64,000 nt of DNA, taken from NCBI GenBank assembly GCA_973895155.1, contig OZ316892.1, forward strand, positions 15,182,861 through 15,246,860. The letters run 5' to 3'. This DNA comes from Marsupella aquatica. Its lineage: Eukaryota > Plantae > Marchantiophyta. A program made the position numbers and the translations under genes. The notes under the pieces were generated by a model. The model did not search any database and was not told the DNA's origin. It saw only the letters and a list, made by a program, of their open reading frames with translations. Shown here piece after piece: positions 8,502 through 42,360 of this stretch (position 1 is its first letter; the number at the start of each line of letters is the position of its first letter).

Positions 8502-9674
8502 CTGAAAGCGCAAATCGCATGCTTCAGATGACAAGGAGGAAAGATTTAGTTTTTATCAGCACAGTAGAAGGTAACATAAAAGGAAAGCTTGCTAGCATCC
8601 GGGATAAACAGGGTAAAGAGCTTGCACTGGTCATGACTTCAAGATGCTTCGTTTGAGTCACCAGATAGATCCCTGTCATTAGTGGCTCCATCAAAATCCT
8701 AGCATTTGCAGGGTATGGAAGGCCGGACGATATACAACATGTGCAATACTTCAAATAAAGACAAAACTGAAATGGGGGTGGACAAAAAGGATGGGACAAA
8801 GATTAACAAAATAACATAAAAATATTATTGTGCAAGATTTTTTTTCTTCATATTTGTTTATGTTCAAGGAAGGGGTAATCTGGCTAGTGGAACAAAACAA
8901 TCAATCTCCCCTTGTATACCTCTTGACTTCCCTATTTTTGGTTGGAAAAAGGTGAGGCTGTCATTGTGAATGAGTACCGACGTTGCTAGCTGTATTGTTA
9001 GAAACAAGTTGAACTGACCAAACATAGGCATCAGGCCAACGCTCATGACCATATTTGACCAGATAATCTGCACCTAGTGTGACCCCACAATTGGAGTAAA
9101 GAGGGCCACGTTGGAACTTGACAATTTACTCTTCATAACAAGGTGCTAAGGGTGGCTTTACATAATGTTGGTGGCCCACTTCTTTTTCTCTCCTCTAAAA
9201 TTAAGTTTGGACCACTTAATGAGTGGAGACAGCTGCAATTGGCTTTACAGAAACTTGGGGGCACAGGTATAGTGTCCCCTGATCCTACAATGGCAAGTAG
9301 TGGGCCCAAGTAAATACTGATGTGTAGTGTCTATTTTGCCTAGAATTGTTGACCACCACTAGAGGTGATTGAAACATTTGCAACCCTTGTCCCTTTCTCT
9401 CCGGGGGATTTGCATTTACTGAACTTCAATTCAAAAGATTTTTGAACTGGAGACTATCTTTGAAACAAGGAGTGGCCATGGGGTTTGCTTTGGTGAAAAA
9501 GCTACAAATGCCCCCACCCTAAATGCCATATTAAATAGCCCCATCTAGTTGGTGTCACCTATAGGGAGGTGGCACGTCAAGCTTGTGGTGAGAGGACCAC
9601 TAGTTCTTTGCCCCCTCTCTATGCGCCTTCAGCCAAAATTGCTCTTTGTTGGTTGCTCTTGCTCTCTTCTCAGC

Positions 9675-9850
9675 TGTCGTGACATATAGTATCGTAGCCA
9701 TAGTGTATCGAAAACATACAAGTCACCGGCAAGGCATATGTGCAAGCTGCTAGCAACCAACATGCATAGAAAAAGTCCAATCACATTCACAAGTACCAAG
9801 AAAAAGCAAATGAAGTGGTATGTACGTAGTGGAGGTGTAAACCTCTGTAT
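9675..9850 (-). repeat. Repeat B2 (176 bp), 3' terminus of the element
   Basis: Direct copy of 10211-10386 with about 6 substitutions, all transitions; ends in CACGACA on the element strand. Confidence 0.95.
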
Positions 9851-10208
9851 ATAAAAGGCGTAAGAGAAACAATTGTACTGAAATTGAATCGAAAACCGGC
9901 AGGATGCCAAGATCGGCCGGGAGCATCTAACGAATCACTGTGTGAATCCCGTGTATAGAACCGACGAGCACTGTCTGAGCTCTGTCAACAGCGATTCAAG
10001 AAGAACTGAAAACCCCCAAAGAAAGACATGCCCTAAGCAAGCAAAGTCCTGGCATCACACTAACAAGCACATTTGCTTCAAGAACGGCCCAGACTTGCTA
10101 CAAGAACATGTCACTAACTCAGGTAGTACACTAGCCCTAACTACATACCTAGCGGGCAGGCGAGGGACATGCCGATGTGCATAAGAGGCAATGTCCCTTG
10201 GCATGACA
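9851..10208 (-). repeat. Repeat A2 (358 bp)
   Basis: Direct copy of 25900-26257 with about 11 substitutions; begins TGTCATG on the element strand. Confidence 0.95.
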
Positions 10209-10210
10209 GC

Positions 10211-10386
10211 TGTCGTGACATATAGTATCATAGCCATAGTGTATCGAAAACATACAAGTCATCGGCAAGGCATATGTGCAAGTTGCTAGCAACCAACATG
10301 CATGGAAAAAGTCCAATCACATTCACAAGTGCCAAGAAAAAGCAAATGAAGTGGTATGTACATAGTGGAGGTGTAAACCTCTGTAT
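10211..10386 (-). repeat. Repeat B1 (176 bp), joined to A2 by a 2-bp GC spacer
   Basis: Copy of 9675-9850. The junction at 10202-10217 reads catgaca-gc-tgtcgtg. Confidence 0.95.
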
Positions 10387-10393
10387 CCCCCCC
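10387..10393 (-). other. Putative polypurine tract (G7) immediately 5' of B1
   Basis: A C7 run on + ends exactly at the B1 boundary, about 30 nt after the pol stop. Confidence 0.65.
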
Positions 10394-10425
10394 AGACCAC
10401 AGCCAAAAGGAGGGCTGAAGAAAAT

Positions 10426-11076
10426 TCAGGTAGCACGTGGAGCACAGGAAGGGCAAAACCATAACCCTTCTGGCACCTGGGTAAGTTCAGGCCGAAGACA
10501 GAAAAGATGGTACCCTCCATTGCAATTGTCACACAGCAGCATCTGGTCAGCATCATCAATTCGCAAACACACTTTGCAAGGGTAGTCCACAGGTGGAATC
10601 CAAGTAGAAGTCACAATGGTGGGATCCAGGTTAGGCAGATGACAAGGGGCGCAATTCTTGGCATTGTCAGCAATTGTGCGCCCATCTGCCCCTTGTAACT
10701 CTAGCACTCCCGATGGTCAAATAGCTTTAACCCTAAGAATAGTACGACTGGTAGAGGTGTCCAGGGTGTCGTTAGCTTGCCGTTGCAAGTACACAAAATC
10801 TCCCACTTCAAACTTCCTAACCTTGGGCTGAAAAGTGCCCCCTCGTGTGTGTGCATAACACAGTGTGTCCCTGTGCTGTGCGATGGCCAAATTCTCCATG
10901 GCCATGGGCATAACCCTCCTGAATAGGGCAGCCCTCTCAGAGATCACATCAGACCAAGTCACAGTTGAATCCAAGTCTACCACCTGAAGCATGTGAGCAA
11001 CAATAGCAGAAGGTGGAACTGGGTGACGACCAAAAACAAGAAGTAGGGAGAAAAGTTAGACAGTGATGCATGTCTG
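10426..11076 (-). pseudogene. Integrase C-terminus and C4HC3 PHD finger of the DNMT retroelement
   Basis: HASLSNFSPYFL..GRHP continues the integrase across the Copia insertion. It is followed by GDFVYLQRQ, an in-frame TGA at 10717, and CKVCLRIDDADQMLLCDNCNGGYHLFCLRPELTQVPEGLWFCPSC. Confidence 0.9.
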
Positions 11077-11479
11077 TGTTGGGTATTTACTCTTACGTCT
11101 AGGTTAGGTATGACGTGGTTGGTACAACAACGTGGGTTGGTACAACTACGTGATTAGGTACAACTATGTGGTTAGGTACAACTACGTGATTAGGTACAAC
11201 TATGTGGTTAGGTACAACTAAGTTGCACACTATATCATAAGAGGCATGTGTGCTTGGAGAGGTAGAACCAAGGCTCATTGTTATGGAGCCACTTGAGAGA
11301 TAGGGAGAGCTTACACTATGGAGACTCGGTATAGCCGACGGGCTTAGAGTTCAGTAAAGCTCTCTTGTGTGTTCCCGTGGACGTAGCCTCAAGGAGGTGA
11401 ACCACGTATCTCTTGTGTCGACTATTGTGCGTTGGATGGTTCATGGGCTTGCCGTTGCGATCGTCGTCTATGCTCAACA
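11077..11479 (+). repeat. Copia 5' LTR (403 bp; six copies of an ~18-bp unit)
   Basis: tgttgggtattt...tgctcaaca; matches 17120-17504 apart from one extra 18-bp unit. Confidence 0.97.
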
Positions 11480-11481
11480 AT

Positions 11482-11493
11482 TGGTATCAGAGC
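11482..11493 (+). other. Copia primer-binding site (tRNA-iMet)
   Basis: TGGTATCAGAGC, 2 nt after the LTR. Confidence 0.95.
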
Positions 11494-12807
11494 ATGCTTG
11501 GGAGGTGACGTGTGTTCGTGACGGGATTTCATTATGGTTTTTCCAGCATTGAGTGTCGGTGGATTTCCCGGAGTTCCGTCGCATGGAACTTGGAGTTTAT
11601 GGGCTCAACGGATAGATCGGGGCAAGAGCTTTCTAATGGTGTGAAGAAATCGTTGAACGGAGCTCGTGGTGCAGAGAGATCTAAGTTTTCGTCGTTCTGG
11701 ATTTTGTGAAGAAAGTTGGCAATCGACTCGGAGGGAGAAGCGTCAAGTGTTTTGACTCAACGGAGAGATTGAGGCAAGACGATTGTTTTGAGTCCGGGAT
11801 TGGCTCTTTGATGCAAAGAGGAAGGCTAAGCAAAATCAATTACCTTGTTGGATTGGTGACGGCACCAAGTGCAATTGATCAACATTCGTTGTTGACAAGG
11901 TACCATTTTTTCTCTTTGAAAAACTGATTCGAAATTGGCTATGGCAATTGAGAGAAATCTGTCATCTTTACCAATTTTTTTCTCCCTCGTTCTTTCCTCG
12001 TTTTGGGTGCTTCTTATATCGATCTTCACCGCCTCGAAGTCTAGTTTCCAAATCTGAAATCAGATCTTGATTTCGTCTAAACTCGAGTGAGATATCTTGC
12101 GTTTGGTGTCGAGGGGTACATTCTGCCGTGTGTATTTTCTGCGCGCGCGACCAGATTTCGACGACGAAGGGTGGTAGGGGGTTTTGGGGGTTCGAGGACA
12201 CGTGTCAGCCCCTCGATTGTTCTTCCAAAATTCCCACAAGGCCTGTACAAGGGTCATAGAATATTCCAAAAAACCATAGAGCTATTTTTTGACCGTCCGA
12301 CAAAGATTTCATCCGTCGAACGGTAACTTTTTTGGTTATTTTTTGGCGAGGTCGTAGCCATTGAAGTTGGCAACGCGGCGCACCAATCACATCGTAATTC
12401 CGACAACGGGTTGTACTTGGTATTTCGGTTATTCCCTGAGGTGGTCAAAACGGGGGAGTTTCCCAAGGTTTTACCCACCTCGACCGAAATTTGAATAACT
12501 TTTCCGTCAAATTTTGATTTTGATTTCGGTTTTTAGTATTGGACTCCTAGCTTTGTGGGCTACGCGGCGGTGTTGAGTTTCGAGTTTTTTGAGAAGTTGT
12601 GAAAAACAACAGTTTTTGTGACTTTCTCATATGAGTGATTCGGAGGAGTTTTTCGAAGACGTGGAACTTGAAGCATGAGGATCACCGCGGAGGTTTCAGG
12701 GGCAGAGAGAGGAGCAGGAGGAAGAGCACGTGACACCGATACCATCACCGGTGCGGCGTGTGGTGGAGGAAGCAGTACTACTACCGGAGCTCACGGTAAA
12801 GAAGAAG

Positions 12808-15800
12808 ATGGGGACTTTCAAGCTTGGGGGACCCAAGTATGAAGTGACAAAGTATGATGGGCGCTCTGACTACTTGCTATGGGAGAAGCAGGTGAAGGGA
12901 GTGCTTTATGCGTCAGGGATAGGCCAACTGCTGAGCCCTCGTGAAGACGATGTTGATGAGAAACAATGGGACCGCATGCAGGAGCAGGGAGTGTGGTGTG
13001 TTACACTCTATCTCATGCCTCCCATCATCAAGCAGTTGGGTGCACATAAGGATTGCATGTCCTTGTTTGCGGAATTGCAAAGCAAGTATCACCGCAAGGA
13101 GTTGTCGAACCGGCTCTACACTTCCTACAAACTGATGAGTTTCAGGATGAAGGAATCTGGTACGAAGTTGCAAGACCATGTGGATGATTTCAACGACATG
13201 GTCGTTGACTTGGAAAACCTTGGGGAGACTTTGAATGATGAGATGAAGGCTCTGCAGCATCTTAGTTCATTGCCTTCATCTTACCAGTCCCTATCACGAG
13301 TGTTGTTGCATCGTGATAGGGATACCATTTCATACAATGACGTGGTAAGTTCTCTGCTTAGTGATGATCTTCAGCAGAAGATGCACATCACGTCACAGCC
13401 TTCATCATCTGGTGCTGCCCTCAATGTTAACCGTGGGAGGAGTATGCAGCGACCAACTGGGGACCGTAGAACCCAGTTTAGATCTAAATCCAGATCTAAG
13501 TCCAAGGGTAAATCCCCTCAGAGGAGGCAGGTGACATGTTGGAAGTGCAACCAAGTTGGACACTTCAAGCGAGACTGTAAGGGAAAGGCAGCGGAAACTT
13601 CATCGGCAAATGTGGCTAGGGCTGATGGAGAAGCTGATTTACTCAATGATGAGTATGTTTTATGAAGCCAGGGGTATGCCCTGTGCACGTCATCTAGGAG
13701 AGCAGATGATGTGTGGATTCTTGATTGTGCTTGCTCTTTTCATATTTGTTACATTCGTGAGTTTTTCAGTTCTTACTCTGTTTCAAACGGTTCAGTTCTG
13801 ATGGGAAATGATCACTCCTGTCAAATTGAGGGAATTGGGTCTGTGAAGATTCAAATGTTTGATGGCGCTGTGCGCACAGTGTCCGGAGTCAGGTATGTAC
13901 CTGGCATGCGTAAGAATCTGATTTCACTCGGTGTGTTGGATTCAAATGGTCATCAATGGAGCGTTATTGATGGTGAACTTCAAGTCAGGTCGGGAGAGAC
14001 AGTGATTTTGAAGGGGAGTAGACAAAAGAATTTGTATGTGTTACAGGGCAATACTGTATGTGGAGAGGCCAATGTAACCAAGTCTCACGAGGAGATGACT
14101 CAACTGTGGCATTCACGGCTAGGCCACATGAGTGAGAAGGGTTTGGCTATCTTACGGAAGAATGGACTCATTTCTGATTTGCAATCTTGTAAATTAGAGT
14201 TTTGTGAGCATTGCATTCTTGGAAAGCAGCATCGTCGTGCTTTTGGTGTTGGAACTCATCGTTCCAAAGCGGTTCTTGAGTACATACATAGTGACGTGTG
14301 GGGTCCATCCCCGACTCCCTCACACTCTGGAAAGTTGTACTATGTATCATTTATTGATGATTACTCAAGATTTGTGTGGATTTATTTCATGACGCATAAG
14401 TCTGATGTCTTGTCCATTTTTAAGAAGTGGAAGGCCCAGGTGGAGAATCAGACTGGAAACACGATCAAGTGTTTGGATACAAGGGTGAAGAGTCTGAGGT
14501 CAGACAACGGCGGGGAGTACACTTCAATGGAATTTGAAGAGTACTGTTCAGAACAGGGGATAACTCGCCATCTCACCACAATTTATACTCCGCAGCAGAA
14601 TGGTGTCGTTGAGAGGCTCAATCGGACACTGTTGGAGCGGTCACGGAGTATGTTGAGCCAATCAGGTTTACCACAAGAATTTTGGGCAGAAGCTATCAAT
14701 ACCGCAGCTTATTTGGTAAATCTTTCTCCTTCTAGTGCTATCAATTTCAAAACTCCGTTTGAGATGCGCTATAAGCGGCAAGCAGACTATCATGGCTTGG
14801 TAGTTTTTGGAAGTGATGCATATGCTCTCACACCGAAGCAGAATAGGACCAAGTTGGATCCTACCTCCAAGAAATATGTTTTTCTTGGGTACCAGAGTGG
14901 TGTGAAAGCCTATAGGCTATGGGATCCTATTGCCTGTAAGCTCGTTGTCAGTAGGGATGTTTCCTTCAATGAATCCAGATTATTGAAGGAGGGGGAGAAT
15001 ACTCAGGTCTCCCGTACTGACAAAGAAAAATCTCCTATCCCGGATCTCGTTGAGGGGGAGATTGGTTATGAGGTGCATGACCGGAGAGAAGGAGTTGCTC
15101 CAATTATGGAGCTGGTTCCTGTGCCAGAGGAACCAGAGGAGTTTGTTGATGCTGGTGAGCAGCAAGTGGATGCTGTTGAGCTTCAAATTGTACCAGCACA
15201 CGCAGATCAACCGAAGTCATCGGCTAGAAGAACATCTGGTCGCACTGTACGTGCTCCACCAAGGTATGGACAGTGGGTTGATTCATCTCAACTGCAAGAA
15301 AATGATTTTGCAACTGATGATGAGGGTGATGCGTTAATTTTGGAAGAAGGGGAACCTTCTTCATTTCATGAGGCAAGTGCTTCAAAGGAGAAGCAGAAGT
15401 GGACTGCAGCAATGCAAACGGAGATGCAGTCACTAAAGGACAACAAAACTTGGGAGCTTGTTAAGCTGCCTAAGGGTCAGCAAGTGGTGGACAGCAAGTG
15501 GATTTACAAGCTGAAGGATAATTCCATAGGAGGTGGATCGAAGGTCTACAAGGCTAGGTTGGTAGCAAAGGGATTCACACAAGAGAAAGGTGTGGATTAC
15601 AATGAGGTCTTCTCACCAGTTGCTAAGTACTCTACAATACGACTATTGTGTGTACTTGTTGTAATGTTTGGTCTGCTGCTAGATCAGATGGATGTTGTCA
15701 CAGCTTTCCTCTATGGCACATTGATCTTCATGAGACAACCGCTAGGTTTTGTGAAGAGAGGACAGGAGGAATTGGTTTGCAGATTGCTGAAATCCTTGTA

Positions 15801-16929
15801 TGGGTTGAAGCAGTCACCAAGACAGTGGAACAAGCAGTTTGATGATTGGATTCGGTCACAAGGTTTTCACAGAAGTGTATTTGACCCTTGTGTGTATTTG
15901 AAATCGGTAAAGAATATTGTATTTGGGTTCATTGTTTTAGTACTTTATGTGGATGATATGCTAATTGCAGCCAAGGATAGGTCTGAGATTGTTAAGCTCA
16001 AGGCACTACTTAGTGCAGAGTTTAAGATAAAGGACTTAGGGCCAGCTAAGAGGATTTTGGGTATGGAGATCACTAGGGACTTGGAGGCTGGCAAGCTATG
16101 GTTGACGTAGAGCAGTTATGCGAAGAAGGTAATTGCAAGGTTCAACATGGGGAATAGCAAGCCAGTAAGTACCCCGTTGGCTCCACACTTCAAGTTATCA
16201 TCAGCGTTCTGTCCTACGGATGACACAGAGAAGGGGTTGATGTCAAAGGTTCCGTATGACAAGGCAGTGGGGAGTCTCATGTATTTGATGACTTGCACTA
16301 GACCTGATCTTGCCATGGCTATGGGCAAGGTAAGCAGGTACATGTCAAATCCAGGGAAGGTACACTGGGAAGCAGTGAAGTGGATTATCAGGTACTTGAA
16401 GGGTACCGTGGATCATGGTCTTTTATTTGATGCGAATGCAAAGAATGCTAAATCATTGATTGGCTATGTTGATTCTGACTATGGACAAGATTTGGACCGA
16501 AGGAGATCAACAACAGGATACGTGTTCACACTTGGCGGTGGATGCATAAGTTGGAGGTCTACTTTGCAGAAGTGTATTGCTCAGTCTACTACAGAAGCGG
16601 AGTATGTTGCAGCTGCGAAAGCAGCAAAGGAAGCGATTTGGTTGGATAGACTTATCACTGAAATGGGATTGTCACAGGGGAATGTGAAGCTCCATTGTGA
16701 TAGTCAAAGTGCGCTCCACCTTGCTATGAACCAGGTGATGGACAGCAGAGTGAAGCACATTGATGTCAGGTACCATTTTATCAGGCAGGCTGTGTCTGAT
16801 AATTTGTTTGAGCTAGTCAAGATTGATGGTAAACTCAACCCGGCTGACGCATTTACCAAAGTGATTCCTTTGGAGAGTTTCTCTAGACACCGTGACGTAT
16901 TGCAGGTTTTGCAATTGCATCACAAGTAG
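12808..16929 (+). pseudogene. Copia gag-pol polyprotein in one frame with two internal stops (TGA 13663, TAG 16108)
   Basis: CWKCNQVGHFKRDC knuckle, WILDCACSFH protease, WHSRLGH...CEHC and HSDVWG/SDNGGEY integrase, LYVDDML RT, GYVDSDY/CDSQSA RNase H. The three ORFs share a frame. Confidence 0.93.
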
Positions 16930-17108
16930 AGTTTTCTTAACATTCATTGTAATTACTGATATATGCTCTTCCTCATTCCTATGTATTAGGCTACGGCTTA
17001 GTTCTGGTTTGCTCTAGTTAGAGAGGGAAACCAGTTTGGTTTTTATCCAGAACTTCCCGCTGAGGGATCATATACATTGGCAGTATTACTCTCCCCTAGA
17101 CCAGAGTC

Positions 17109-17118
17109 AAGGGGAAGA
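17109..17118 (+). other. Copia polypurine tract
   Basis: AAGGGGAAGA just before the 3' LTR. Confidence 0.85.
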
Positions 17119-17119
17119 T

Positions 17120-17504
17120 TGTTGGGTATTTACTCTTACGTCTAGGTTAGGTATGACGTGGTTGGTACAACAACGTGGGTTGGTACAACTACGTGGTTAG
17201 GTACAACTACGTGATTAGGTACAACTATGTGGTTAGGTACAACTAAGTTGCACACTATATCATAAGAGGCATGTGTGCTTGGAGAGGTAGAACCAAGGCT
17301 CATTGTTATGGAGCCACTTGAGAGATAGGGAGAGCTTACACTATGGAGACTCGGTATAGCCGACGGGCTTAGAGTTCAGTAAAGCTCTCTTGTGTGTTCC
17401 CGTGGACGTAGCCTCAAGGAGGTGAACCACGTATCTCTTGTGTCGACTATTGTGCGTTGGATGGTTCATGGGCTTGCCGTTGCGATCGTCGTCTATGCTC
17501 AACA
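17120..17504 (+). repeat. Copia 3' LTR (385 bp; five ~18-bp units)
   Basis: Direct repeat of 11077-11479. Confidence 0.97.
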
Positions 17505-18785
17505 GTCTGGACATCCTATACCCCATGGCAATGTAGGGTAAGGCCAGGTCCCAATCCTCCTTGTTTTTGGTGAGGCAAATCTTCCGGAGACCCTTCTTGC
17601 ATGTCTGAACCATGCGCTCTGCCAAGCCATCTGCCTGTGGATGATCTCGTGATGTCCGGCGATGATCAATGAGGGCCTGATCAAGCAGCTCCTGGAACTC
17701 TCCTCTAAACTCTGAGCCCTGGTCAGTGAGACATTCTACACAAGCTCCAAAGCGACTGAGAACTTGTTGCAGGAATGCCTGGCTGGTGCTTAGGGGGGTC
17801 TTATCCGGCAATGCCACAAGTTCTATCCACTTAGAGAAATGCTCTATCATGATGATGATGTAGAGATTACCCCGAGACGTGAGGGGTAATTCTCCAGCCA
17901 AATCACATGACCAGCGATAAAACATGCCCTGAATAGGGAGTGGATGAAGTGTGAGTTGCTGAGATGTGAAAGAAGTCCTCACCCTATCACACTGTTCACA
18001 CCGGGCAATAACATCTTGAACCTGGCCATGCATGCCTCTCCAATGATAATGAGGGACCAAGAGGCTGTAAGTCCTCTTAACGCCAAAATGACCAAGCTCA
18101 GAATGTACCTTACGGATAAGGCCAACCCTCTCATGAATGGGTGGAACCACCACTTCCCTGTCTGGCAAGCAGCGCACGAGATGATCTCCCTTCCACAAGT
18201 AACGCTTGGACCTTTGCTGAATTCGGTCTCTCTGGGCAGCAGTAACATGGGTGGGGTACTCCCCATGCTGCAGAAATCTCAGAGTGTCGCTGTCCTCCCA
18301 TATGTCCACCACAGGTTGGTCAACAATGTAGCATGGCAGCAAAGCAAGATAGGTAGATGCATGAAATGTAGGCAGGACGGAAACCTGGTCAAAATTCTGC
18401 TGTGCGTCTGAGGAATCATCAGAGGCAATCAAAGGGCTGCGGGACATAGTGTCAGCATTTTGATGTGTCACACCAGGCCTATGAATTACCTCAAAATCAT
18501 ACTCCTGGAGTATGAGCGCCCAACGAGCAAGCTTGCCAGTAAGCTTGTCGTTGGTCATCAACCACTTCAAGGGCTGGTGGTCGGTGTAGAGAACAAACCT
18601 GGTCCCATAGAGGTAGGGCCTATAATGTATGATAGCCCACACAACAGCAAGGCATTCACCCTCATAAGAAGAATAATGACTCTCTGCCTGATTGTTGCTC
18701 CTGGATGCATAGGCAATGATGTACTCTTTACCTTCCTCATCATGCTGGCCCAAAATGGCACCAATCCCAAGGGCACTCCAATCTG
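17505..18785 (-). pseudogene. RNase H and integrase (HHCC and DDE core) of the DNMT retroelement
   Basis: DWSALGIG..IAYASR..EGECLAVVWAI..TDHQPL..NADTMSR; HSELGHFG..CEQC; CDLAG, TDQGSEF, GLAERMVQ. Confidence 0.95.
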
Positions 18786-19830
18786 TGTGAAATCAGGTCT
18801 TCTCAGCACCGGGTATTCTGAAAGCTTCTCCTTCAAAGTGGCAAATGCTGCCTCAGCATCTGTACTCCATGTCCAAGTCACATTCTTTTTCAACAAAGCA
18901 TACAATGGGTGTGCAATGGTACTGAAATCTTTGATGTAGATCCGGTAGTAATTGCACAACCCAATAAAACTCCTCAAAGTGTGAACATCGGTAGGAGTGG
19001 GCATTTCCAAGATGGATACCACCTTGGCCCAGTGAGCCATGGTTCCATTTGGAAGAATGCGATGCCCAAGATATACTACTGATCTGACAGCAAATTCACA
19101 CTTATTGGGGTGTATCTTTAGGTTCACCTTCTTAAGCCTCATGAATAGCTCCTCAAGGTCAAGTAGATGCTGGTCAAATCCTTTATTGTGGACCAACACA
19201 TCATCAATGTAGCATTTCAGAAACTCAGCACCTTGAAGAACCTGGTCCATGACTCTTTGAAAGAATATGGGCGCATTCTTCAAGCCAAATGGCATCACCA
19301 ACCACTCCCATAGTTGGTTACTACCATGGAAAGCTGTTTTCTTGCGGTCCTTTGCAAGCAGCAAAATCTGGTTAAAGCCTTGCCTTAGATCCACAAGAGT
19401 GAAGATGTCTGAGTCTCCAATGCTGTCAAATAGCTCCTCTGGCCGTGGCATGGGGTACCTGTCCTGGGGTGTGACCAGGTTTAGCGGCCTGTAGTCCCCA
19501 CACATGCGCTTCTCTGTCCACAATCCACTGGAATCCTTCTTTGCTGGCATCACTGTAGCTGTTGCAAAATCTGATGTAGATGGCTGAATAAGACCAGCTT
19601 CATATAACTCTTGGCACCTCTCATCCACCAGCTGACACTCATGCTTACTCAAACCGTGTCTCCACCTGAAGATAGGTGTTTCATCAACCAAATCAATGGA
19701 GAACTGCATAGTCTTGCACTTACCCCAGTCCTTCATAGAGAAAGCAAACACATTCTCATGCTTGAGGAGCAAATTCAGCAGCTGGTCCTTCTGTCTTTTA
19801 CTCAGGTGGTTGCCCATGATGAATGTGTAG
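18786..19830 (-). pseudogene. Gypsy-type reverse transcriptase of the DNMT retroelement
   Basis: KRMCGDYRPLN, DRYPMP, DLRQGFNQI, MPFGLKNAP, YIDDVLV, YLGH. It is in frame with the C-terminal half of the methyltransferase. Confidence 0.96.
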
Positions 19831-20189
19831 TTGGCAACACTAGGAATAGGACCTGATGTACTCGTACTTGAAGAGCCAGAAGTGCTAGCCTCTCCACTGT
19901 CCAAGCTGCTAGCATGCTGCTGATAAGGTGATGAGGCCTCTCCGAGGCCTGTTGTACCTGCTGATCTGGGTTGGTCCACACCATGAAACTCAGAAATAAT
20001 ATCAGCCACATTACAAGGGACCTCCTCCCCCCCAACACTTGGACTGAAGCGATGAGTGTTGAATAGAGGTAAGTGCACCTGGTCAGGATGCCATGTAGCA
20101 GCACCATGGAGTGGTAGAGCTGGAACTCCAGATGCTGGATGAATGTACATCTGAAAAAGGATGCAAGTGACCAGAAGCCAAGTGAGAGC

Positions 20190-21120
20190 ATTAAGATCCA
20201 TTACCCTGCCAAGTAAAGCATTCCTGGCCAGCCTGGTGATCTGGGTGTGACCTGTAGTACCGGATTGGAAGCCCATAGCCCGTTCTCTCTCCTCAGGATT
20301 AGGTTCATCCCAAGTACCGGTAGAATGTCGATAAACCAGGCCAGGACCATCACCCTGAAAGGCATGTGCACCTGGAAAGGATACAAATGTAGGCCAAGCA
20401 GCACGGGGCTGTCCAATGGTATTGGCTGGATACCAAGGTGCTGGCTCTTGCCGTGTAACTGGTTGGCAAGAACTGTCAGGATCCAAAATCTGGTCCACTA
20501 TGAGGTTAGTGTCCCTGGATGTGTGGTGAAGAGCTAACTCCAACAAGGAAGGTGGTGCAAGGTTAGTCCAAAAGTTACGAAGACGATGTGCATAAGAACC
20601 ACAGTGCACTGCATCAATGAGAAGGGGTGGTCCCAAGTAGTGTTGGACCACACTGAAATCCTCTTTGACCTATGGACGCTGGTCAAACTGAGATGGAGTA
20701 TTCTCAATGATATAACCAACAGCAGGATAAAGGGACTGAGCCCAGGTGAGAATCTGAACCAATGCTGTGAAAAGGCCAGAACGAGAATCATGCAGTCCAG
20801 CACCGTGACCAGCAGCTGAAAACCCTTGGCATTCCCAACCAGCTATGATCAAATCAAGGGAGCCAAGAAGGGTTAAGTGTCGGTGCTGGACAAGCTGGAT
20901 ATCTGGAGGAAAGAAAGAAAATGCAGACTTCCATGCACTATGTGGAAACTGCTGGGGAAATCGCTCTGAAAATTCCAACAGACGGGATTCAGCCACTTGC
21001 CTTGCACCTGGATCAATATCCACATAGATGTACTACTTCACCACCATGCCAGACTGTAGGAGAGCTTCCAGGCCTGTAGAAATGCCACCAAAAAGCTCAA
21101 GCAATGTAAGGCCATCTGAA
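20190..21120 (-). pseudogene. C5 cytosine DNA methyltransferase domain (DNMT3-like) inside pol
   Basis: Ordered motifs: I LELFGGISTG, II YVDID, IV DLIIAGWECQGFS, V DSRSGLF, VI IIENT, VIII AHRLRNFW, IX ERERAMGF, X RLARNALLGRVMD. One frame, broken only by TAG at 21033 and 20670. Confidence 0.9.
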
Positions 21121-21341
21121 GGAGGAGTCCATGTAACTGGTGCGCTCAAGATTGGGGCTATTGATTGGCCATTGTGCTGCCCAAGATCCTCAAATTTGCG
21201 CAATGCAGCCACCAAAGGTCCATGGGCTGCTTGGAGCCGTTGTACCACCTCTGGTTGATGATCCACGTTGCTGGAAAGTGCTGCTATACGTGCAGCAGCA
21301 TGTGCAGTAGCCACCTCATCATCATCCTCCTCAATCCAATC

Positions 21342-22724
21342 CTACAATGGGTGGTTGACATAGGTAGCTGTGTGCACTGCTTTCAACACACAGTGGTGAG
21401 CCATAGGTGTATGGGCACCGTGCAAATCAAGTGGAATGTAGCCCAAGTGTGAGCCATCCGTATGCCAATCAACTCTGTAGTATGCATGCTCATGCCAGTT
21501 GTCAATGGTAAAACCTGGTGGGAACAAAGCCTCCTGGCCAATGAGCACATCATACGTAGTGGCATTGGTAACCAAACATCTGACTGGGAAATGCAATTCC
21601 TGATCTGTACCTCCATTAAAAGTGAGAGTGAGTAAAGTAGAACTCTCACCCAGCACATCCTCCACAGTGCCACTAGCAGTCCGAATGTGCCACTTGGATT
21701 GCTGTAAATGATCAGTCAACAGTCCCATCTTCTTGGCAAACTGAATGCCCAATATCACTGGTTGAGCACCTGTGTCTAGCATGACCACCTGAGGAGCGTG
21801 ACCCTCCAACTTGACCACTGAATTCCTGTTGTCAACAATGACAATAGTGGTGGAAACTGAAGTCCTGTCACTAGGCACCACTCTCGGCAAATGATGAGGT
21901 ACCTTGTGAAGGGAGTTAGTGTCCACGGTCTTTCCACTCAACAACATAGCCAGGAAAGATGGAGTAGCATGACCAGAATCAAGTGTAGCTCTGGTCACAC
22001 AATCAATAGCAATCGGTACTGGGGCAGCCAAACCAGTGGAAACATGTAAAGGAGAAGAAGAAGGTCCAGTATGTACATGAGATTGGACCTCCAAAACCGG
22101 TGTCACAGGGGCTGATGAAGAATGCAGTGAACCCTCTAGCGCTCTGAGGACAGCTCTAGCATCCAGCTGTAAATCATGGCAATTGAAAAGTAGAGTTGTA
22201 AGAATCCTTTGTGCCATACCGGAGGTGACATGCTCAAGTAGCTCAGGAGAAACAACTCCCTGTGAAATGTCAGCAGCACCTGGTGGTGGAATGGATGTAG
22301 TTGCAGCTCCCTCCCCCCTCGCCAACAAGGTGCGCTCTTCAGCAAGTGTGAGTGGCTGAAAAGATTGGGGCAAGACAGCCCGAGCTCCCCTGGCTCTAGT
22401 CATAGGACCGGCAGCAAGACCATCAGCCTGTACAATGCGGCGTGTGGGAGCAATACGAGAGGCAGCACTGGCTTGCTGGTAAGCAAAATAGGAAGGGCAG
22501 AATGAATCTAAAAATTCTGCTGTAAGGCCAGGCTGTGGAGCAGAGGACAACACACACTCACCCATATGAGCATCAAATGGCAAGCCATAGAAAGAGCGGG
22601 ATAGAGGTGCTGAACTGTCAGTGGTGTCTGGGTTGCACGTGACCAGCCGGTTGAGAAGGACCAGCAGAGGTAGTTGACTTGCCTTTGATGTTGGCAAGTT
22701 GGGCACGTAGGGACTCAACCTCAT
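21342..22724 (-). pseudogene. Pol N-terminus with retropepsin-like aspartic protease
   Basis: VMLDTGAQPVILG...IRTASG...YDVLIGQEAL; same frame as the DNMT and RT across a TAG at 21342. Confidence 0.88.
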
Positions 22725-24192
22725 GAGTCAGAGACTGGAGTTGAGTTGCCTGTGCGTTGTGAGCCTCCTTCTGAGCTGGTGGCTTCTGTTGCTACTTGGG
22801 CAATTTGTTGGCACTGGTTGCTTTGCCACTGGAAGGAGGAGCAACTGATGCAATAGGAGCCCTCCTAGCTGGTGGGGGAGTGGAAACATGAGCAGGATGA
22901 GTGGCCTGTTGTCGTAGCTGTTTCCTCTCTAGGAATTTGGCAAAACAAACTGCCTCCAAGTGGCCCACTTTCCCGCAAAAATCACAAGACAGGTCCTCAG
23001 CAACAATATCACATTCATTAGCCTTGTGATTAGGATTGCCACAGTAGTTGCAAGATGGCAGCATGAAAGCAGCATGTGCTGGTTTGGTCTTGGAAGCATA
23101 CTATGGCACACGGGAAGGGGTGGTCATTGTAGGAGTAGCAGCCTGGTACCTGGATCGCGGTGGACGCGCAATACTGGCCTCATAATGTGCATGGGCCAAC
23201 TCAAGTTTCTCAGCAGTGTCATAGACATTGAGCAATGTGTAGCTGTCTCCAAACTCTGAGAATACTTGCTGCAACACTTGTGAATGGAGAGCTGGTGTGC
23301 CCGCCAATGCGCAAAGATAGCGATGAGCAGCTTCTAGGTCAGTGATGCTCTGGGTGTCCTCCTTCAGCTTAAGAAGCCGGCGATACATCATCTTCAAGGT
23401 TTCATCGCGCTGCCTCACAAAGGTCGCCAACTGCATGATTTTGTCAGCACTCTTGATTGGGAATTCCAATTCAAGAACCTGGAAAAACTCAGCGACTGGA
23501 TCAGCAAAGGCAGGAGAATCAATAGTGGGAGAAATGCCTGATGTAGCCTGTGCCAAGACAGTGGGAGTAACTGGCGCAGTGGTAGGAACTGGAGTAGGAG
23601 GGGAAGTGGCAGGAGCAGCAACATGGGCTGCAATGGCATTATGTAAGGCCAATTGTGAGGCTGCCATAATTGCACTGGCATAGGTAGGGTTTGTTAACTG
23701 TGTGATAGCAAGCAGCCATTGAGAGTGCTGCTCATACACATCCAAAGCCTCATAGTGCACATACCTGGCTAGTTGCTTGAATGCAAAAGCATTGGTGAAA
23801 TTGCTGCCGTACTTCAACTCCAATTCGTAAATGACAGTGTAGAAAGTGGATTTGAACTCACACAAAGAAACAGTGCCTGGTCGCCCGCTGAAGAGCTCAA
23901 TGCGGCCAGATGAGTGGCTAGCATCCATGCTGTATGTCGGTGAAGCTGGAACAACCACTAATGCATAAGGGGTAAATGGCAAGGAAGTGATAGCAGGCTT
24001 CGGGGTAGTGGTGAAGCGACCGCCAAATTGAGCAGAAGGATTGTGTGGTGTGGGTGCTGCTGCTGTCTGCGGACATTGTCGAAATTGCCGAGACTCCAAT
24101 GAAATTGGCACCAACGGTCGTGGATCACTCCGTAAGTGGTACCGGGGTGTCGATGGCGATGAGCTGCTACGACTCGGCTCCTCTGCTGACAT
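22630..24192 (-). pseudogene. gag-like ORF with two Cys/His knuckles
   Basis: 363-aa ORF, in-frame TAG at 23101, CNYCGNPNHKANEC and CDFCGKVGHLEAVC, TAG at 22792, then a coiled-coil-like tail. Confidence 0.8.
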
Positions 24193-24869
24193 GCTGCATG
24201 CTCACCTGGGGTGCCAATGGAAAAGAAACTGACAAGAAAAATAAATGGCACCCTCAAGGCTAGAAAATTAACCTACAATGAAGCAACAGCGTGAGGCAAA
24301 AATGTTGTGGCCTTGATGTGCATACCCGGGCGTGTAGCCCTATGCGGATTACCGGCGGTTACCAAATGTCCGGGACCAAATGTCAGCGGCTGTGAAGAAA
24401 TATAATGAAATGGACCCCCTTAAGTGTATACATCGGGACCCCCTGTAATTATGCATTGGGCCTGATGTGGACACAGGAACTGACGGAAGGCGCACATCGA
24501 CAGAAAAGAAAAATCAGGTGGGGACCGGCAACCGAGCGAGTGTGCATACACACTCGAGCACGGTGCCCTATGCAGTCGGAGGGAGGTTCTCGCGCGGCGT
24601 TTGAGGCAAGTCGACGCCTTGCCGGCTACAACCCACGGATTGCAGGTCGCGGCAGCTGGGCTGGAAAATGGAAAAATGGGTCTTCAAAACGCGAACGGGC
24701 CCCAATGTACACATCGGCCCTATGTGGACCCGAGAAATGACAGCAGGTCGATCGTCGCGCGGCGAAAAAGCGAGAATGGCCGAAAAAGGGGAAAACGGGA
24801 CCCAAGGCGAGGCGAGGAAAAAAAACACAGAAGAAGCAGAAGTGGGCCTTAATTGCGCGAGCCCTGCAT

Positions 24870-25325
24870 AGGGCTTCGCACCGCCCCCTCCTTAAGTCCT
24901 TATGAGCTCCCGAAGGGAAGCTACGAGTTCCCCCTTCCCCTCCTTAATGATTCCTGGTGGGCCTCGTGCCCTGCAGAAGTGTGACTCCCAAGAGGAGGGA
25001 GTCTAATTGAATTCCCCCTCCCCTCTTTAATTCAGCATAGGGCCTCGTGCCCACTCCTTGCGCTGCTGCCTCGGCTTTGTCTCCCCCCTCCTTTAATGCT
25101 GCTAAATGTGCTTCATGCCCTGCAGGACTCCTGAGAAGGGAGTCGTATGTATTCCCCCTCTCCCCCTCTTTTAATTCCTCATAGGGCTTCGTGCCCTTCT
25201 TTCGCTTCCCCCTCTCCTGCGTGGCTGGTGCGCGGCTCCCCTCTCCCTCCTCTTTAATGCTGAAATGGGGCCTGGCAGGATGACTCCCGAGAGAGAGAGA
25301 GTCGTATGTACTCCCCCCCTTCTTA
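24870..25325 (-). repeat. Degenerate array of hairpin modules in the element's 5' leader
   Basis: Recurrent + strand motifs cccctc(c/t)ttaa, gggc(c/t)tcgtgccc and gactcc...ggagtc; the last two are self-complementary. Confidence 0.7.
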
Positions 25326-25886
25326 CTGTTTTAGAGGCGCGAAGCTGGCTCGGCAGCCGTGGCCGGGAGAGACAAAAAAAACGTTTGAGGGGCCCCCAAG
25401 GGTCGACTCGAGCGGGGGCGCAGCTCCCTATGTACAGACTGCGAAGAGCCGGGGGTGGTAGCGAAAAATGGGCACACGGCCCTATACACTGACAATCGGG
25501 AGGTGGCAGGGAGGGACCATGGCCGGAAACTGCAATAATCGGGCCCCAATCGTTGCGCTACGGTCGGGGCAAGTTCACCAGTAGTGTGTGGCCGGGAAAA
25601 TACCGAAAATGGCCCGAAAAGGTCGAACGTGCACGAGGGCGCAGCGCCCTATGCAGCAGCCGGAAGCAAGTTTGCAACAGCAGGTCGGCAATCGACGGAG
25701 GGGTCGCGGATGCACCCGGGAAGGAAAAATTGGGTTCCAATAGAAGCGTTATGTGTATACATAACGTGACATTAAACCCATAATTTCAACTCGTCACTCC
25801 GATGTCCGTCGAAGAAATTGCAATGGCTTCACCAGAAATTGTCGAAATTGCCACGAGCAATCTTCTTCTCCTCACCGCTAACTCGG

Positions 25887-25901
25887 CAGTTCTTCTTGAA
25901 T
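25887..25901 (-). other. Putative self-priming primer-binding site
   Basis: cagttcttcttgaat (25887-25901) is the exact reverse complement of attcaagaagaactg (26043-26057) inside A1 and abuts the A1 boundary. No TGG-type tRNA PBS is present. Confidence 0.75.
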
Positions 25902-26257
25902 AAAAGGCGTAAGAGAAACAATTGTACTGAAATTGAATCGAAAACCGGCAGGATGCCAAGATCGGTCGGGAGCATCTAACGAATCACTGTGTGAATCCCG
26001 TGTACGGAACCGACGAGCACTGTCTGAGCTCTGTCAACAGCGATTCAAGAAGAACTGAAAACCCCCAAAGAAAGACATGCCCTAAGCAAGCAAAGTCCTG
26101 GCGTCACACTAGCAAGCACATTTGCTTCAAGAACGGCCCAGACTTGCTACAAGAACATGTTGCTAACTCAGGCAGTACACTAGCCCTAACTACATACCTA
26201 GCGGGCAGGCGAGGGACATGCCGATGTGCATAAGAGGCACTATCCCTCGGCATGACA
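25900..26257 (-). repeat. Repeat A1 (358 bp), 5' terminus of the element
   Basis: Direct copy of 9851-10208; not followed by B. Confidence 0.95.
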
Positions 26258-26322
26258 CAGCCCCAGTTTTTTATTGGTGACCTTGTGGATAGTTCAGGCA
26301 GTTTCAGGCGCTGCAACACTGG

Positions 26323-27701: not shown

Positions 27702-29528
27702 CTAAAATTGCCATTCAAGATAGTCCTCTACTTCCTTTTGGCTGTCATAGTCCACTGTATTCCCAATGGTCTTGTCTTTCTCGTGCCCCCATATGTAATT
27801 TAAGCCAACCAACAGCTCTGTAATTGCTGCCTCACTTTTAGCTAGATCTGCAAAATAGAGTGTTTGAAGCAAAAGAATGTTGGAGCGAGCTACGACCTGC
27901 TGCTGCTCGAAGTTGTGCTCAGACTGCCAACGAATCATATTGTGGGCCAGGGGGGTTAACCACGCAAGTATTCTTTCCAAAGCATCCTTCCAATGACTAG
28001 CAATATCACCATCAAAGCCATCTTGCTTCCTCATTCCTGCCTTGAGTCTGGACCTCAGAGCCATTCGCACGCTCTTTGGTAGCATGTTGTACAGATCATC
28101 CCTGGAATCATGAGATATAAGATGTGGAAACTTGATCATCTTCTCAATGATGATGACAACGTTGGCGTAGTGTAAAGCCAGAGCAGCACCTCCAAGGGTG
28201 GTAGACGGGGCGTTATGATGCCTGTGTTTTGGATCAAAGAAGACTTTCCTGGTGTGACCGGTCTGACTGAAAAGATCATGATTTGAAGACACACTGGGTA
28301 TCCTGAAAGGAGTTCTAAGGGGAAATGGTTGAGAGCTGCGGAGGGAGGCCGGGCTGAGGGTCTCTGCCAAATTAGACCATTGAGTGCCTGTCCCAACCTT
28401 ACTAGAAAGGCTGATCGGGTTGTCGTGAGGGCTATCTATTGCGAGGGCCTGAAAATCCATGGACCCCCTCGTAGGGGATTGAAGGCAAGTTTGATAGAGA
28501 GGAAAATAGCAAGGATTAGGTTTTCTAGATTGACTAATGATTGGCCCAGAACTTAGAGCCGGGCGTAAGTCAGAAACCACAGGGGATACTCGAGAGACAT
28601 AAGAGCTACTTACTGAATTTGTGATTGCCCCGCTAACAAAGGTGCGATCATGAGGAGAGCCAGGAGTGAAAGGCCCCACGACTACTGGGCCAATTGAGGA
28701 TTGCCGTTCCAATCCTCTGCGCGGAGGTGGAGGTGTCAGTTTAATAAAGGGCGAAGCTCCAGTCTTCAGAGGAGCGTCTCGTAATCTTTCAACGGGGAAC
28801 AGCTGAGGCAACCCCAGGAGAGGAGAACCAAAGACTGTTATAATTCTTCCATGAATGGTGCACACAGTTCGTGCGAGAAGGGTTACAATTTTGTCATAAG
28901 TGCTATTCCAAAGAGATAAATCTCTCAAGTACTTGATTTCCTGTCGATGCCATAATGCTTTCTCCTCCAGGGCAACCAATGTTTCTCTGTCACGCGGGGT
29001 ACCTGACCCGTCATCCTGCATCCTTCTGATGGCGATCTCCAAATCTCCTAGAATCTCTAGTTCCTGGTACAGATGCGACGTTGAAGCGATGAATTGATCC
29101 ATCTTCTTAACCTTTGCTTCCATGTCTTTGAGAGCGAATTCCCATTTTTGGACATCAATCTTATGCTTCAGTACGTCGTCATAGACATGCTCGAAACCGT
29201 GCAGTACCTGTTCTTGACATTTCTTCCCCAGTCGGGCAACTGCCCCAGCTACTGCTGTCAGGTCCTGGAGTTTTTCCATGCAAGCCAAACTGAGAAGGAC
29301 AGCCTCTTTGTCAGATACCAGGTTTAGAACGCCCTCAGCTTTGATCACATCTGTTCTAAGCCGAAGGATCTCATGATCACTCAAAGACTGCCACAGCAGC
29401 ATGATCTTTGACATTACATTTGCCACCTCAAAGGAAAGGATTCCTATTTTCGCTTTCTCGGGTTTTGCACCCTTCTTCTTCCGATCTCGTTCTATCACCG
29501 CCTTGATGGTGCTCACCTGGCTCCCCAT
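27702..29528 (-). CDS. DUF3475/DUF668 domain protein (PSI-related family), intronless CDS
   Basis: IGILSFEVANVMSK (DUF3475) and TLGGAALALHYANVVIIIEK..RDDLYNMLP..WLTPLAHNMIRWQSE (DUF668). The first ATG gives MGSQVS, an N-myristoylation-like start. Confidence 0.93.
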   Translation of the reverse strand: MGSQVSTIKAVIERDRKKKGAKPEKAKIGILSFEVANVMSKIMLLWQSLSDHEILRLRTDVIKAEGVLNLVSDKEAVLLSLACMEKLQDLTAVAGAVARLGKKCQEQVLHGFEHVYDDVLKHKIDVQKWEFALKDMEAKVKKMDQFIASTSHLYQELEILGDLEIAIRRMQDDGSGTPRDRETLVALEEKALWHRQEIKYLRDLSLWNSTYDKIVTLLARTVCTIHGRIITVFGSPLLGLPQLFPVERLRDAPLKTGASPFIKLTPPPPRRGLERQSSIGPVVVGPFTPGSPHDRTFVSGAITNSVSSSYVSRVSPVVSDLRPALSSGPIISQSRKPNPCYFPLYQTCLQSPTRGSMDFQALAIDSPHDNPISLSSKVGTGTQWSNLAETLSPASLRSSQPFPLRTPFRIPSVSSNHDLFSQTGHTRKVFFDPKHRHHNAPSTTLGGAALALHYANVVIIIEKMIKFPHLISHDSRDDLYNMLPKSVRMALRSRLKAGMRKQDGFDGDIASHWKDALERILAWLTPLAHNMIRWQSEHNFEQQQVVARSNILLLQTLYFADLAKSEAAITELLVGLNYIWGHEKDKTIGNTVDYDSQKEVEDYLEWQF

Positions 29529-36760: not shown

Positions 36761-37105
36761 TGTTGAGCATAGACGACAGTTGCAACGGCAAGCCCATGAA
36801 CCATCGAACGCACAAGTATCGACACAGAGAGATACATGGTTCACCTCCACATGAGACCACATCCCCGGGAACACACAAGAGCTTTACTGCACTCTAGGCT
36901 GACCGGCCATCCCAAGCATTCACAACACAAACTCTCCCTATCTCTCAATTGGCTCCGTAAAAATGAGCCTGAGTTCCTACTCTCCAAGCAAACACCATTT
37001 GGGTATAGTGTGTGTGTAACATGACTAACCTAACCTAGTCTGCGACTAAGGTTAGCCCTAATTGCGGTACAGTCGTTTCTGTACCCCTAAGAGTATATCC
37101 TAACA
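36761..37105 (-). mobile_element. Solo LTR related to the Copia LTR at 11077
   Basis: TG..CA ends and a 3' half that matches the Copia LTR. Flanks are gaaaa/aaaaa (TSD with 1 mismatch). Removing it restores LPEAEKPYEIW. Confidence 0.9.
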
Positions 37106-37525
37106 AAAAAGCCTTATGAGATATGGACGGACACGTTGAATTTTGATATTAGGGCTGTCCATAACCAAGATAATCAGCTCGTGGGATATCTATCAGTCAA
37201 GGTGGAGAACAAGTGGCCGACTCAAGAGCAGAAACACTATTGTTTGTGCAATGAAACAATGGTACATCCATCTCATGGAATCCCGGCACATACCCAATTT
37301 CAATGATAATATCTATGTGACTTATTTCTTGGCTTAATCCAAGTCATTGCCAATGCAATGCCGCTGGCCAGAGCGCATCCAAAAGTTCCCTAATTATAAG
37401 ATCCAATATAAACCAAGGGAGAACTTAGTGGCGGATGCCTTATTGAGGCATGAGATTTGGTTGAAAGGTGCATTGTCAAATCCAATTCACTAGACAAGTT
37501 GCTCAGGGCCTATGCATACAATTGC

Positions 37526-38000
37526 TTGACAACAATATGGCTAACTTGACTTGGGATCAATACAAAGGTATGGCATGTCTCATTGAACAAGGCCAAAATA
37601 CTTATGTGGAAGCAGTTGAAGGCTTCTATTCCAGAGAAGTTGACGACGATTACTTGACAACAATATGCCTCACTTGACTTGGGATCAATAAAAGTTGCAG
37701 CATGTCTCATTGAACAAGGCCAAAATACTTAGGTGGAAGCAGTGCAAAGGCTATATTCCAGAGAAGTTGAAGACGATTACTTGACAACAATATGGCTAAC
37801 TTGACTTGGGATCTATAAAAAGGTGCAGCATGTCTCATTGAACAAGGCTAAAATACGTGTGTGGAAGCAGTCAAAGGCTTATACTCCATGTTGCAACAAA
37901 ATATGACTAACTTGATTTGGGATCAATAAAAAGGCGCGTCATGTCTCATTGAACAAGGCCAAAACACTTATGGGGAAGCAGTCGAAGGCTTATTTTCCAT
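37526..38000. repeat. Tandem repeat of about 110-128 bp, 4 copies, inside the Gypsy remnant
   Basis: Units beginning ttgacaacaatatg(g)ctaacttgacttgggatc at about 37526, 37654, 37781 and 37891. Confidence 0.88.
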
Positions 38001-41932: not shown

Positions 41933-42360
41933 CGTTCTTCTTCCTCCGGTCCCGAGGGCGTACAAGGAGAACGACGACTCAGGTTACAACAGTTCGACAG
42001 ATTTTCCTCAAAATTGTGCCACAACAACTGCAACAATTGGAACAATTGCTGGAGACATTGCGCGATGAATCCTGGCGATCAAGTCATTCTCGGGTGCCCA
42101 TGGTGGCGGGCGCCATTGACACCGACGTCCAAAAACTCACCCGCAAGGACGATGGCAAGTAAAAGTGCTCGATAAATAGAATGCGATGACGAGAAGAGGA
42201 CAGACGGGGTTTGAGAGAGTTTGAGGCTCCGATGGATGCTGTTGCACGGATTGTTTGGGGGGGGGAGGGGGGGGGGGGGTTGGCCGCTCCCATAGGATTA
42301 CGGTAGACTACCCCCTGATGAGTGCTCACTCTCATTGTGTGACCACCTTAATACCCGAAA

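Follow-up and report, generated by a model that had tools for sequence, protein, structure and literature searches.

Split direct repeats on a Ty3/Gypsy retrotransposon with a DDE integrase in the liverwort Marsupella aquatica, and a one-sided integrase cut as its probable route of insertion

The DNA analysed here, referred to throughout as the window, comprises 64,000 nucleotides (nt) of contig OZ316892.1 (positions 15,182,861 to 15,246,860, forward strand; GenBank assembly GCA_973895155.1) from the liverwort Marsupella aquatica. On its minus strand lies a retrotransposon whose direct repeats are split into two parts, A and B. Read along the element, the order is A1, internal region, a run of seven G (G7), B1, the dinucleotide GC, A2 and B2, and a leader of ~1.7 kb stands between A1 and gag, followed by pol, G7 and B1. 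This layout, together with TG..CA termini, a 4-bp target-site duplication and an HHCC/DDE integrase, had been proposed in an initial annotation made from the sequence alone, and every coordinate was confirmed. Minus a nested Copia element, the element measures ~10.15 kb. The window copy is dead, with several in-frame stops, one frame change and the inserted Copia. The repeats, ends and priming signals are as follows, in window coordinates; LTR stands for long terminal repeat, cDNA for complementary DNA and att for attachment site.

9671 to 9674, no strand: 4-bp target-site duplication beside B2 (CAGC on the plus strand), by flank comparison
9675 to 9850, minus: B2, the terminal repeat that closes the element at its 3' end with CACGACA; putatively the B of the left cDNA LTR
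9851 to 10208, minus: A2, starting with TGTCATG, by repeat comparison; A2-B2 joint at 9851/9850
10202 to 10217, minus: internal att-like near-palindrome CACGACA-GC-TGTCATG, spacer 10209 to 10210; kept in relatives
10211 to 10386, minus: B1, starting with ATACA straight after the G run
10387 to 10393, minus: G7 polypurine tract adjoining B1, putative plus-strand primer; relatives also have a G run before B1
25887 to 25901, minus: putative primer-binding site for self-priming; it overlaps A1 by the final 2 nt of that repeat
25900 to 26257, minus: A1, 5' terminal repeat, starting with TGTCATG
26043 to 26057, minus: predicted self-primer at the predicted 5' end of the transcript, by complementarity
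26258 to 26261, no strand: 4-bp target-site duplication beside A1

Comparison of A1 (25900–26257) with A2 (9851–10208) gave 11 differences in 358 positions, 10 of them transitions; B1 (10211–10386) and B2 (9675–9850) differ at 6 of 176 positions, all by transitions. The element opens with TGTCATG at the start of A1 and closes with CACGACA at the end of B2, i.e. TG..CA, and is flanked by CAGC at 9671–9674 and 26258–26261. All 4 letters of the flanks agree at a length of 4 bp, compared with at most 2 at lengths of 3, 5 or 6. TG..CA ends with a duplication of 4–6 bp are those of Ty3/Gypsy elements, whereas the two complete direct LTRs of a canonical LTR element are lacking, the ends being A on one side and B-GC-A-B on the other. 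The element is Gypsy by its proteins and no canonical LTR element by its structure. As had been annotated, the priming signals define the reverse-transcribed LTR as B-GC-A, and the att-like palindrome lies inside it. That the target CAGC equals the junction core was put down to chance; targets vary across 25 insertions of relatives.

The domain order gag, protease, reverse transcriptase (RT), RNase H and integrase is that of Ty3/Gypsy (Pfam matches to zinc knuckle, protease, RT, RNase H and HHCC/rve). The integrase carries both the HHCC zinc finger and D..D..E, and its closest solved structure is Ty3 Gag-Pol (E 1e-33). No Phage_integrase match was obtained in the open reading frames (ORFs) of the element that were scanned, in agreement with the annotation, which had recognised no tyrosine recombinase. 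Two domains absent from that annotation were found: a C5 DNA methylase domain (PF00145) between protease and RT, and a PHD finger (PF00628, E 2e-12) after the integrase. The nested Copia had not been noted there either. This PHD finger is the C-terminal module; the domain scan of the element gave no chromodomain match. The coding regions and the nested element are listed below.

10393 to 11076, minus: C-terminal part of the integrase, PHD finger at ~10444–10578; broken by stops
11077 to 17504, plus: nested Ty1/Copia element with the 5-bp duplication GTCTG; splits the integrase gene
17506 to 18792, minus: RNase H and integrase (HHCC; D, D-34-E)
18567 to 20189, minus: reverse transcriptase (YIDD), RVT_1 match at ~19056–19517; the frame changes before RNase H
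20190 to 21290, minus: C5 cytosine DNA methyltransferase domain, with two in-frame stops in the window copy
21342 to 22727, minus: Pol N-terminal region, aspartic protease at ~21525–21815
22792 to 24201, minus: gag with CCHC zinc knuckle and one in-frame stop; 70% identity to the N-terminus of protein P0122

In the integrase, the spacing between the last D and E is 34. It holds for the window and for every sequence that matched the pattern (42 of 42 proteins, from the set P0130–P0207, and 19 of 19 loci), with L101, L102 and L105 among the sequences compared; in the nested Copia it is 35, and alignment with Ty3 and foamy virus shows the clade to be one residue shorter. By this comparison, D-34-E is a clade marker, which may bear on the manner of cutting.

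To establish whether the layout is a family trait, relatives were sought. Named protein relatives among the matches listed come from Calypogeia, Sphagnum, Marchantia, Closterium and green algae. Metagenome contigs were then scanned with a methyltransferase alignment, and the best 80 of 568 confirmed stretches, 57–73% identical, were taken. Their A and B were defined from 7 loci and searched for in all 80; they show no BLAST similarity to A and B of the window, the relatives forming a sister family. Seven distinct insertions among the 80 loci have the order A..BAB with both ends in view, and A..B forms were seen at L056 and L075, both with duplications, and at L022. No B stood before A1 in any of 35 A1 ends, 25 of them distinct. 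The layouts predicted for other copies were therefore found in part: A..BAB and A..B occur, while ABA..B was seen at 0 of 25 distinct 5' ends. Conventional two-LTR copies, which the annotation had named as the sign of a one-off or an artefact, were not seen among the 80 loci, and no joint of B to primer site or of G run to A was present among the relatives' ends printed. A..BAB is a family trait of the sister family and no one-off.

Ten distinct insertions (7 A..BAB, 3 A..B) could be read at both ends. The target-site duplication of 4 bp, also predicted for other copies, is exact in 7 of them, and one more agrees at 3 of 4 letters; a full flank match at 3, 5 or 6 bp was never seen in these ten. 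This count omits L058 and L066, in which B is cut short, and L022, which repeats L038. Target 4-mers are diverse across 25 insertions, so homology to the junction is unnecessary. L022 (A..B) and L038 (A..BAB) occupy one insertion site, with flanks 96–97% and element 89% identical. Since L022 is an allele of L038, an A..B form needs no more than a post-insertion loss of B1-GC-A2 or a collapse in assembly, and such copies arise at least partly by later loss.

Contigs of 4 runs (2 studies, one possibly the source of the window) were also aligned to window positions 9560–10700. Loose contig ends numbered 17, 9, 12 and 10 at the B terminus and 11, 6, 6 and 14 at the A terminus, with an agreement of 0.39–0.49, as expected for many different flanks. 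Those at the other end of A agree at 0.91–1.0, and their sequence is that of the primer site (rows shown, 24 of 249).

The two joints of the B1-GC-A2-B2 block behave differently. At the B1-A2 joint, a spacer of 2 nt was found in 14 of 14 distinct copies: GC in 5, GC or GT by allele in 1, AC in 5, GT in 2 and AT in 1. Every spacer is GC or a transition product of GC. The fixed GC spacer that had been predicted stands as to length, and its letters vary; AC may have been inherited in one subgroup with common B variants. The A2-B2 joint is exact in 8 of 14 copies and altered in 6: three are without one AT, one has lost T and gained G (a leftover of the tract or a substitution may explain this), one has lost ~150 nt of B (L008) and one is an inversion breakpoint (L051). 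In L051 (9019–16897) most of the element is inverted, with breakpoints at the exact end of A2 and 15 nt into B2. The difference between the uniform and the variable joint gave a one-sided Fisher p of 0.008, and the A-B junction, which the annotation had derived from joined ends, looks newly made in each copy. These altered joints are those of the sister family; in the window's own family, one contig with an extra base at this joint was seen.

Within a copy, B1 and B2 differ at 8.75 of 135 nt, compared with 13.8 for B1-B1, B2-B2 and cross pairs alike (12 of the 14 elements; L008 and L051 omitted). This closeness indicates that B2 has no separate lineage; by these alignments, it is likely recopied from B1 in each cycle and joined anew to A2. 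An origin of B1 and B2 from separate templates was considered and rejected, as the indels that had seemed common are (AT)n length changes.

Conservation of the palindrome was followed further in L101–L105, GC-rich Gypsy contigs filed in bacterial metagenome-assembled genomes and likely to be mis-binned eukaryotic contigs. GACA-GC-TG lies 55–240 bp behind the G run in L101, L104 and L105 at an RT identity of 36–41%; L102 and L103 stop too early to show it. GACAGCTGTC gave 0 matches in 664 kb of control loci (20 viral-contig and 21 bacterial loci). L101–L103 gave no methyltransferase match. Viral contigs gave nothing with the land-plant methyltransferase alignment, and weak methylase matches alone with the algal-type alignment.

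For priming, a 15-nt perfect reverse complement was found between A positions 201–215 (26043–26057) and the end of A1 with its primer site (25887–25901), for which a crude estimate of chance is ~7e-7; no transfer RNA gene was found in the window. Although the primer letters differ in relatives, the complement is kept, at 15 nt in 8 of 26 A1 copies and at 11–13 nt in 4, and a third version, of 12 nt, occurs in the distant element L101. Primer and primer site thus covary among the window family, the relatives and L101. The primer helix was favoured at 5 of 6 folding lengths of the window and in 20 of 21 folds of relatives picked for a perfect complement, and a TATA box precedes the primer by ~30 nt in all 3 relatives printed. 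From this complementarity, transcription likely begins within A1 and the RNA acts as its own primer, as in Tf1/Tf2; self-priming has been described for Tf2 and predicted for plant Tcn1 in the portions of the literature at hand (PMC5341516, PMC6317226).

With a probability of roughly 0.7, these sequence comparisons point to a Ty3/Gypsy element, bearing a methyltransferase and a PHD finger, that inserts by a one-sided internal integrase cut in the left LTR, together with end joining. Self-primed RNA beginning inside A1, as suggested by the covarying complement of 12–15 nt, would be copied with ordinary strand transfers into (B-GC-A)-internal-(B-GC-A), as the positions of primer site and G run imply; the ends of this product would be AT..AT, not TG..CA, with the TG/CA att site inside. 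Integrase would then nick each strand of the left palindrome behind its CA (CA^GC TG). This would yield a pair of CA-3' ends bearing 2-nt overhangs, and inserting these 4 bp apart would give the permuted A-internal-B-GC-A-B with the duplications that are observed. Excerpts of two retroviral papers report that integrases of retroviruses cut such palindromes internally in vitro (PMC1905944, PMC1180852). The left site might be favoured, speculatively, as the first to become double-stranded, the left LTR doing so long before the right, after the second strand transfer. The free A2 end would be joined to the free start of the cut-off B. This joining could precede insertion, in a circle whose left site integrase already occupies, or could follow it, by repair of a chromosomal break; a circular intermediate is possible. 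B1-GC-A2 would carry an intact att site into the next RNA, and B2 would not be passed on.

Several observations weigh against this route. The A2-B2 joints that lack one AT could be explained by later slippage in ATAT. The RT tree of 13 relatives carries no weight either way on the independence of these joints: it is a star, 9 of its 10 branches being open, and a guessed coordinate put the L015 row in the wrong place. A complement of 6–9 nt alone is present in 14 of 26 relative A1 copies; these were read as probable decay, two of them having inexact coordinates. The primer helix was lost at 1 of 6 window folding lengths and in 1 of 21 folds of relatives, and no TATA box was found before the primer in the window copy. 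Two of the 10 both-end insertions, L017 and L043, have no duplication, and the sequences of the relatives are those of old copies assembled from short metagenome reads. The L101 contig runs through G run, B, GC, A and primer site consecutively, which is explained either by assembly collapse of A1 with A2 or by a layout that a left-only cut does not foresee, such as a real ABA..B form, a tandem or a circle.

The strongest rival, although improbable, is that RT by itself makes a linear A..BAB copy through one additional template jump, either as proposed for PAT/Ngaro or end to end on common AT, after which integrase would do near-ordinary 2-nt end processing. The lack of ABA..B would follow directly, A ends and B starts with AT, 3 of 14 joints are without one AT, and the layout is the same as in Ngaro, PAT and VIPER; two-base clamping by RT is a further point for it. 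However, if the RNA starts inside A1, the start of A comes solely from the B1-GC-A2 joint, so an exact cut or stop at GC would still be needed. B2 has no lineage of its own, and the L051 inversion and the ~150-nt loss in L008 resemble repair of free ends.

Less probable still, and quite unlikely, is the route favoured by the initial annotation, a closed two-LTR circle that integrase cuts at either of two equal B-GC-A sites. It would yield A..BAB, a variable A-B joint and a 4-bp duplication, has precedents in foamy virus and HIV-1 according to the excerpts at hand (PMC1180852, PMC1905944), and would suit the B-GC-A-primer site order of L101. About half of the copies should then be ABA..B, whereas 0 of 25 distinct 5' ends were, an outcome with a probability of 3e-8 under a 50:50 choice, and the annotation's cut at either site is accordingly not upheld. 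Rescue would need every ABA..B to have collapsed to A..B, yet the sole traceable A..B (L022) shares its site with the A..BAB copy L038.

That a tyrosine recombinase acting in trans inserts the element, as in split-repeat elements of DIRS order, is very unlikely and already largely refuted by the duplications: the repeat order is that of Ngaro, PAT and VIPER and the window target 4-mer equals the junction core, but no recombinase domain was found in the window ORFs scanned, 8 complete relatives have no antisense ORF of at least 150 aa, the DDE integrase core is kept across the clade, and targets are unrelated 4-mers, duplicated, beside TG..CA ends. That an ordinary Gypsy element with two LTRs was rearranged once or misassembled has next to no probability, old and broken as the window copy is with its nested Copia, for the same layout recurs in 7 independent sister-family insertions whose A and B lack BLAST similarity to those of the window, the relatives' ends printed show no B-primer site or G run-A joint, and the layout is reported in Klebsormidium nitens too (PMC5890265, from the portion at hand).

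In that alga, Dnmt3-bearing elements are described as having Gypsy domains and DIRS-type repeats (Fig. 4c legend, de Mendoza et al. 2018, PMC5890265), the DIRS arrangement being spelled A-coding-B-A-B in the Fig. 1 legend. KnitGypsy-Dnmt3 and the window element are thus alike as Gypsy elements with a methyltransferase in Pol and split repeats, and the combination that the annotation took to be undescribed had been reported in 2018. The part of that account at hand covers one alga and is silent on target duplication, att site, primer type and mechanism. The likeness is by description, no K. nitens sequence being named among the protein matches listed. The name KnitGypsy was found in de Mendoza et al. 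alone, and no account of the mechanism was found, within the literature searched, most subscription journals lying outside it.

Other systems share single traits with the window element, as far as the portions of the papers at hand describe them. Ngaro, PAT-like and VIPER elements have the same repeat order, A1 ... B1 A2 B2, and encode a tyrosine recombinase (PMC6681497). The window element instead combines a DDE integrase and a protease with TG..CA termini, and arbitrary targets are duplicated over 4 bp; of the DIRS traits it has the split direct repeats and lacks the recombinase. Tf1/Tf2 and plant Tcn1 resemble it in a primer site complementary to an LTR-internal stretch and in Ty3/Gypsy domain order; a complete LTR stands at each of their ends and most carry a chromodomain, whereas it has a permuted LTR, a PHD finger, no chromodomain and a D-E spacing of 34, its self-priming site being recognised by sequence only (PMC5341516, PMC6317226). 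At the two-LTR junction of foamy virus and HIV-1, a CA..TG palindrome is cut internally by a DDE integrase to give processed ends, as is proposed here; that palindrome arises by ligation of cDNA ends, whereas the one in the window element is LTR-encoded and RNA-carried and would be the sole route (PMC1180852, PMC1905944). The Chlamydomonas elements Gypsy-7a_cRei and REM1 are likewise Gypsy with a PHD finger, with LTR subparts and unequal LTR ends in the legend; there, no methyltransferase is listed and the PHD finger is listed before the integrase (PMC9940879).

Several further observations concern the methyltransferase, base composition and the nested element. The methyltransferase has two positions in Pol, the protease/RT gap (window, Marchantia, Closterium) or the RNase H/integrase gap, and the order RT, RNase H, methyltransferase, integrase, C-terminus was seen in 29 proteins, algal-type matches included (P0122–P0209 set). 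Observed/expected CpG is 0.25–0.26 in pol (17510–22727), 0.62 in the nested Copia, 0.54–0.76 in two host genes and 0.84 in the 5' leader; the low value in pol could be due to age or to self-methylation. The LTRs of the nested Copia show 0 mismatches in 384 aligned bases and differ mainly by one 18-bp tandem unit; it is a very young insertion with no part in the mechanism. LTR fragments related to it lie near 36761–37108 and 52906–53262.

Elsewhere in the window, a single-frame DUF3475/DUF668 gene (27702–29561, minus) lies ~1.4 kb from the 5' end of the element. At 40205–41983 (minus), one unbroken frame of 592 aa encodes a protein of SRP54 type that carries an N-terminal extension and is likely the chloroplast form; plant SRP54 copies usually have introns. 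Exons at 58280–62570 (minus) resemble a LysM receptor kinase, judged by eye. Tandem arrays occupy 42358–43176 and 37513–38009, with units of 35 bp (~16 copies) and 111–127 bp.

Retrovirology has long asked if an internal CA..TG palindrome can serve a DDE integrase as a genuine substrate for insertion, a question so far argued from two-LTR circle junctions. Here, a whole clade appears built to depend on such cutting, and the question becomes testable from genomes and cDNA ends. We consider it rather probable that in a green-lineage Gypsy clade, with D-34-E, a PHD finger and often a methyltransferase, the att site has moved from the cDNA ends into an LTR palindrome, making internal cleavage and end joining an obligate one-sided route that gives a Ngaro-type layout without a tyrosine recombinase and lets the elements escape two-LTR finders. 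The layout is already in print for one alga, without an explanation of mechanism in the portion of that paper at hand (PMC5890265), and the family is likely spread across green plants and algae. Split repeats serve as a mark of tyrosine-recombinase elements, and this family shows that an element with an integrase can acquire them. Surveys that demand a pair of complete LTRs, TG..CA ends and a target duplication, as in the described part of PMC6317226, would miss such elements, and bryophyte and algal catalogues may therefore lack a high-copy, methyltransferase-bearing group.

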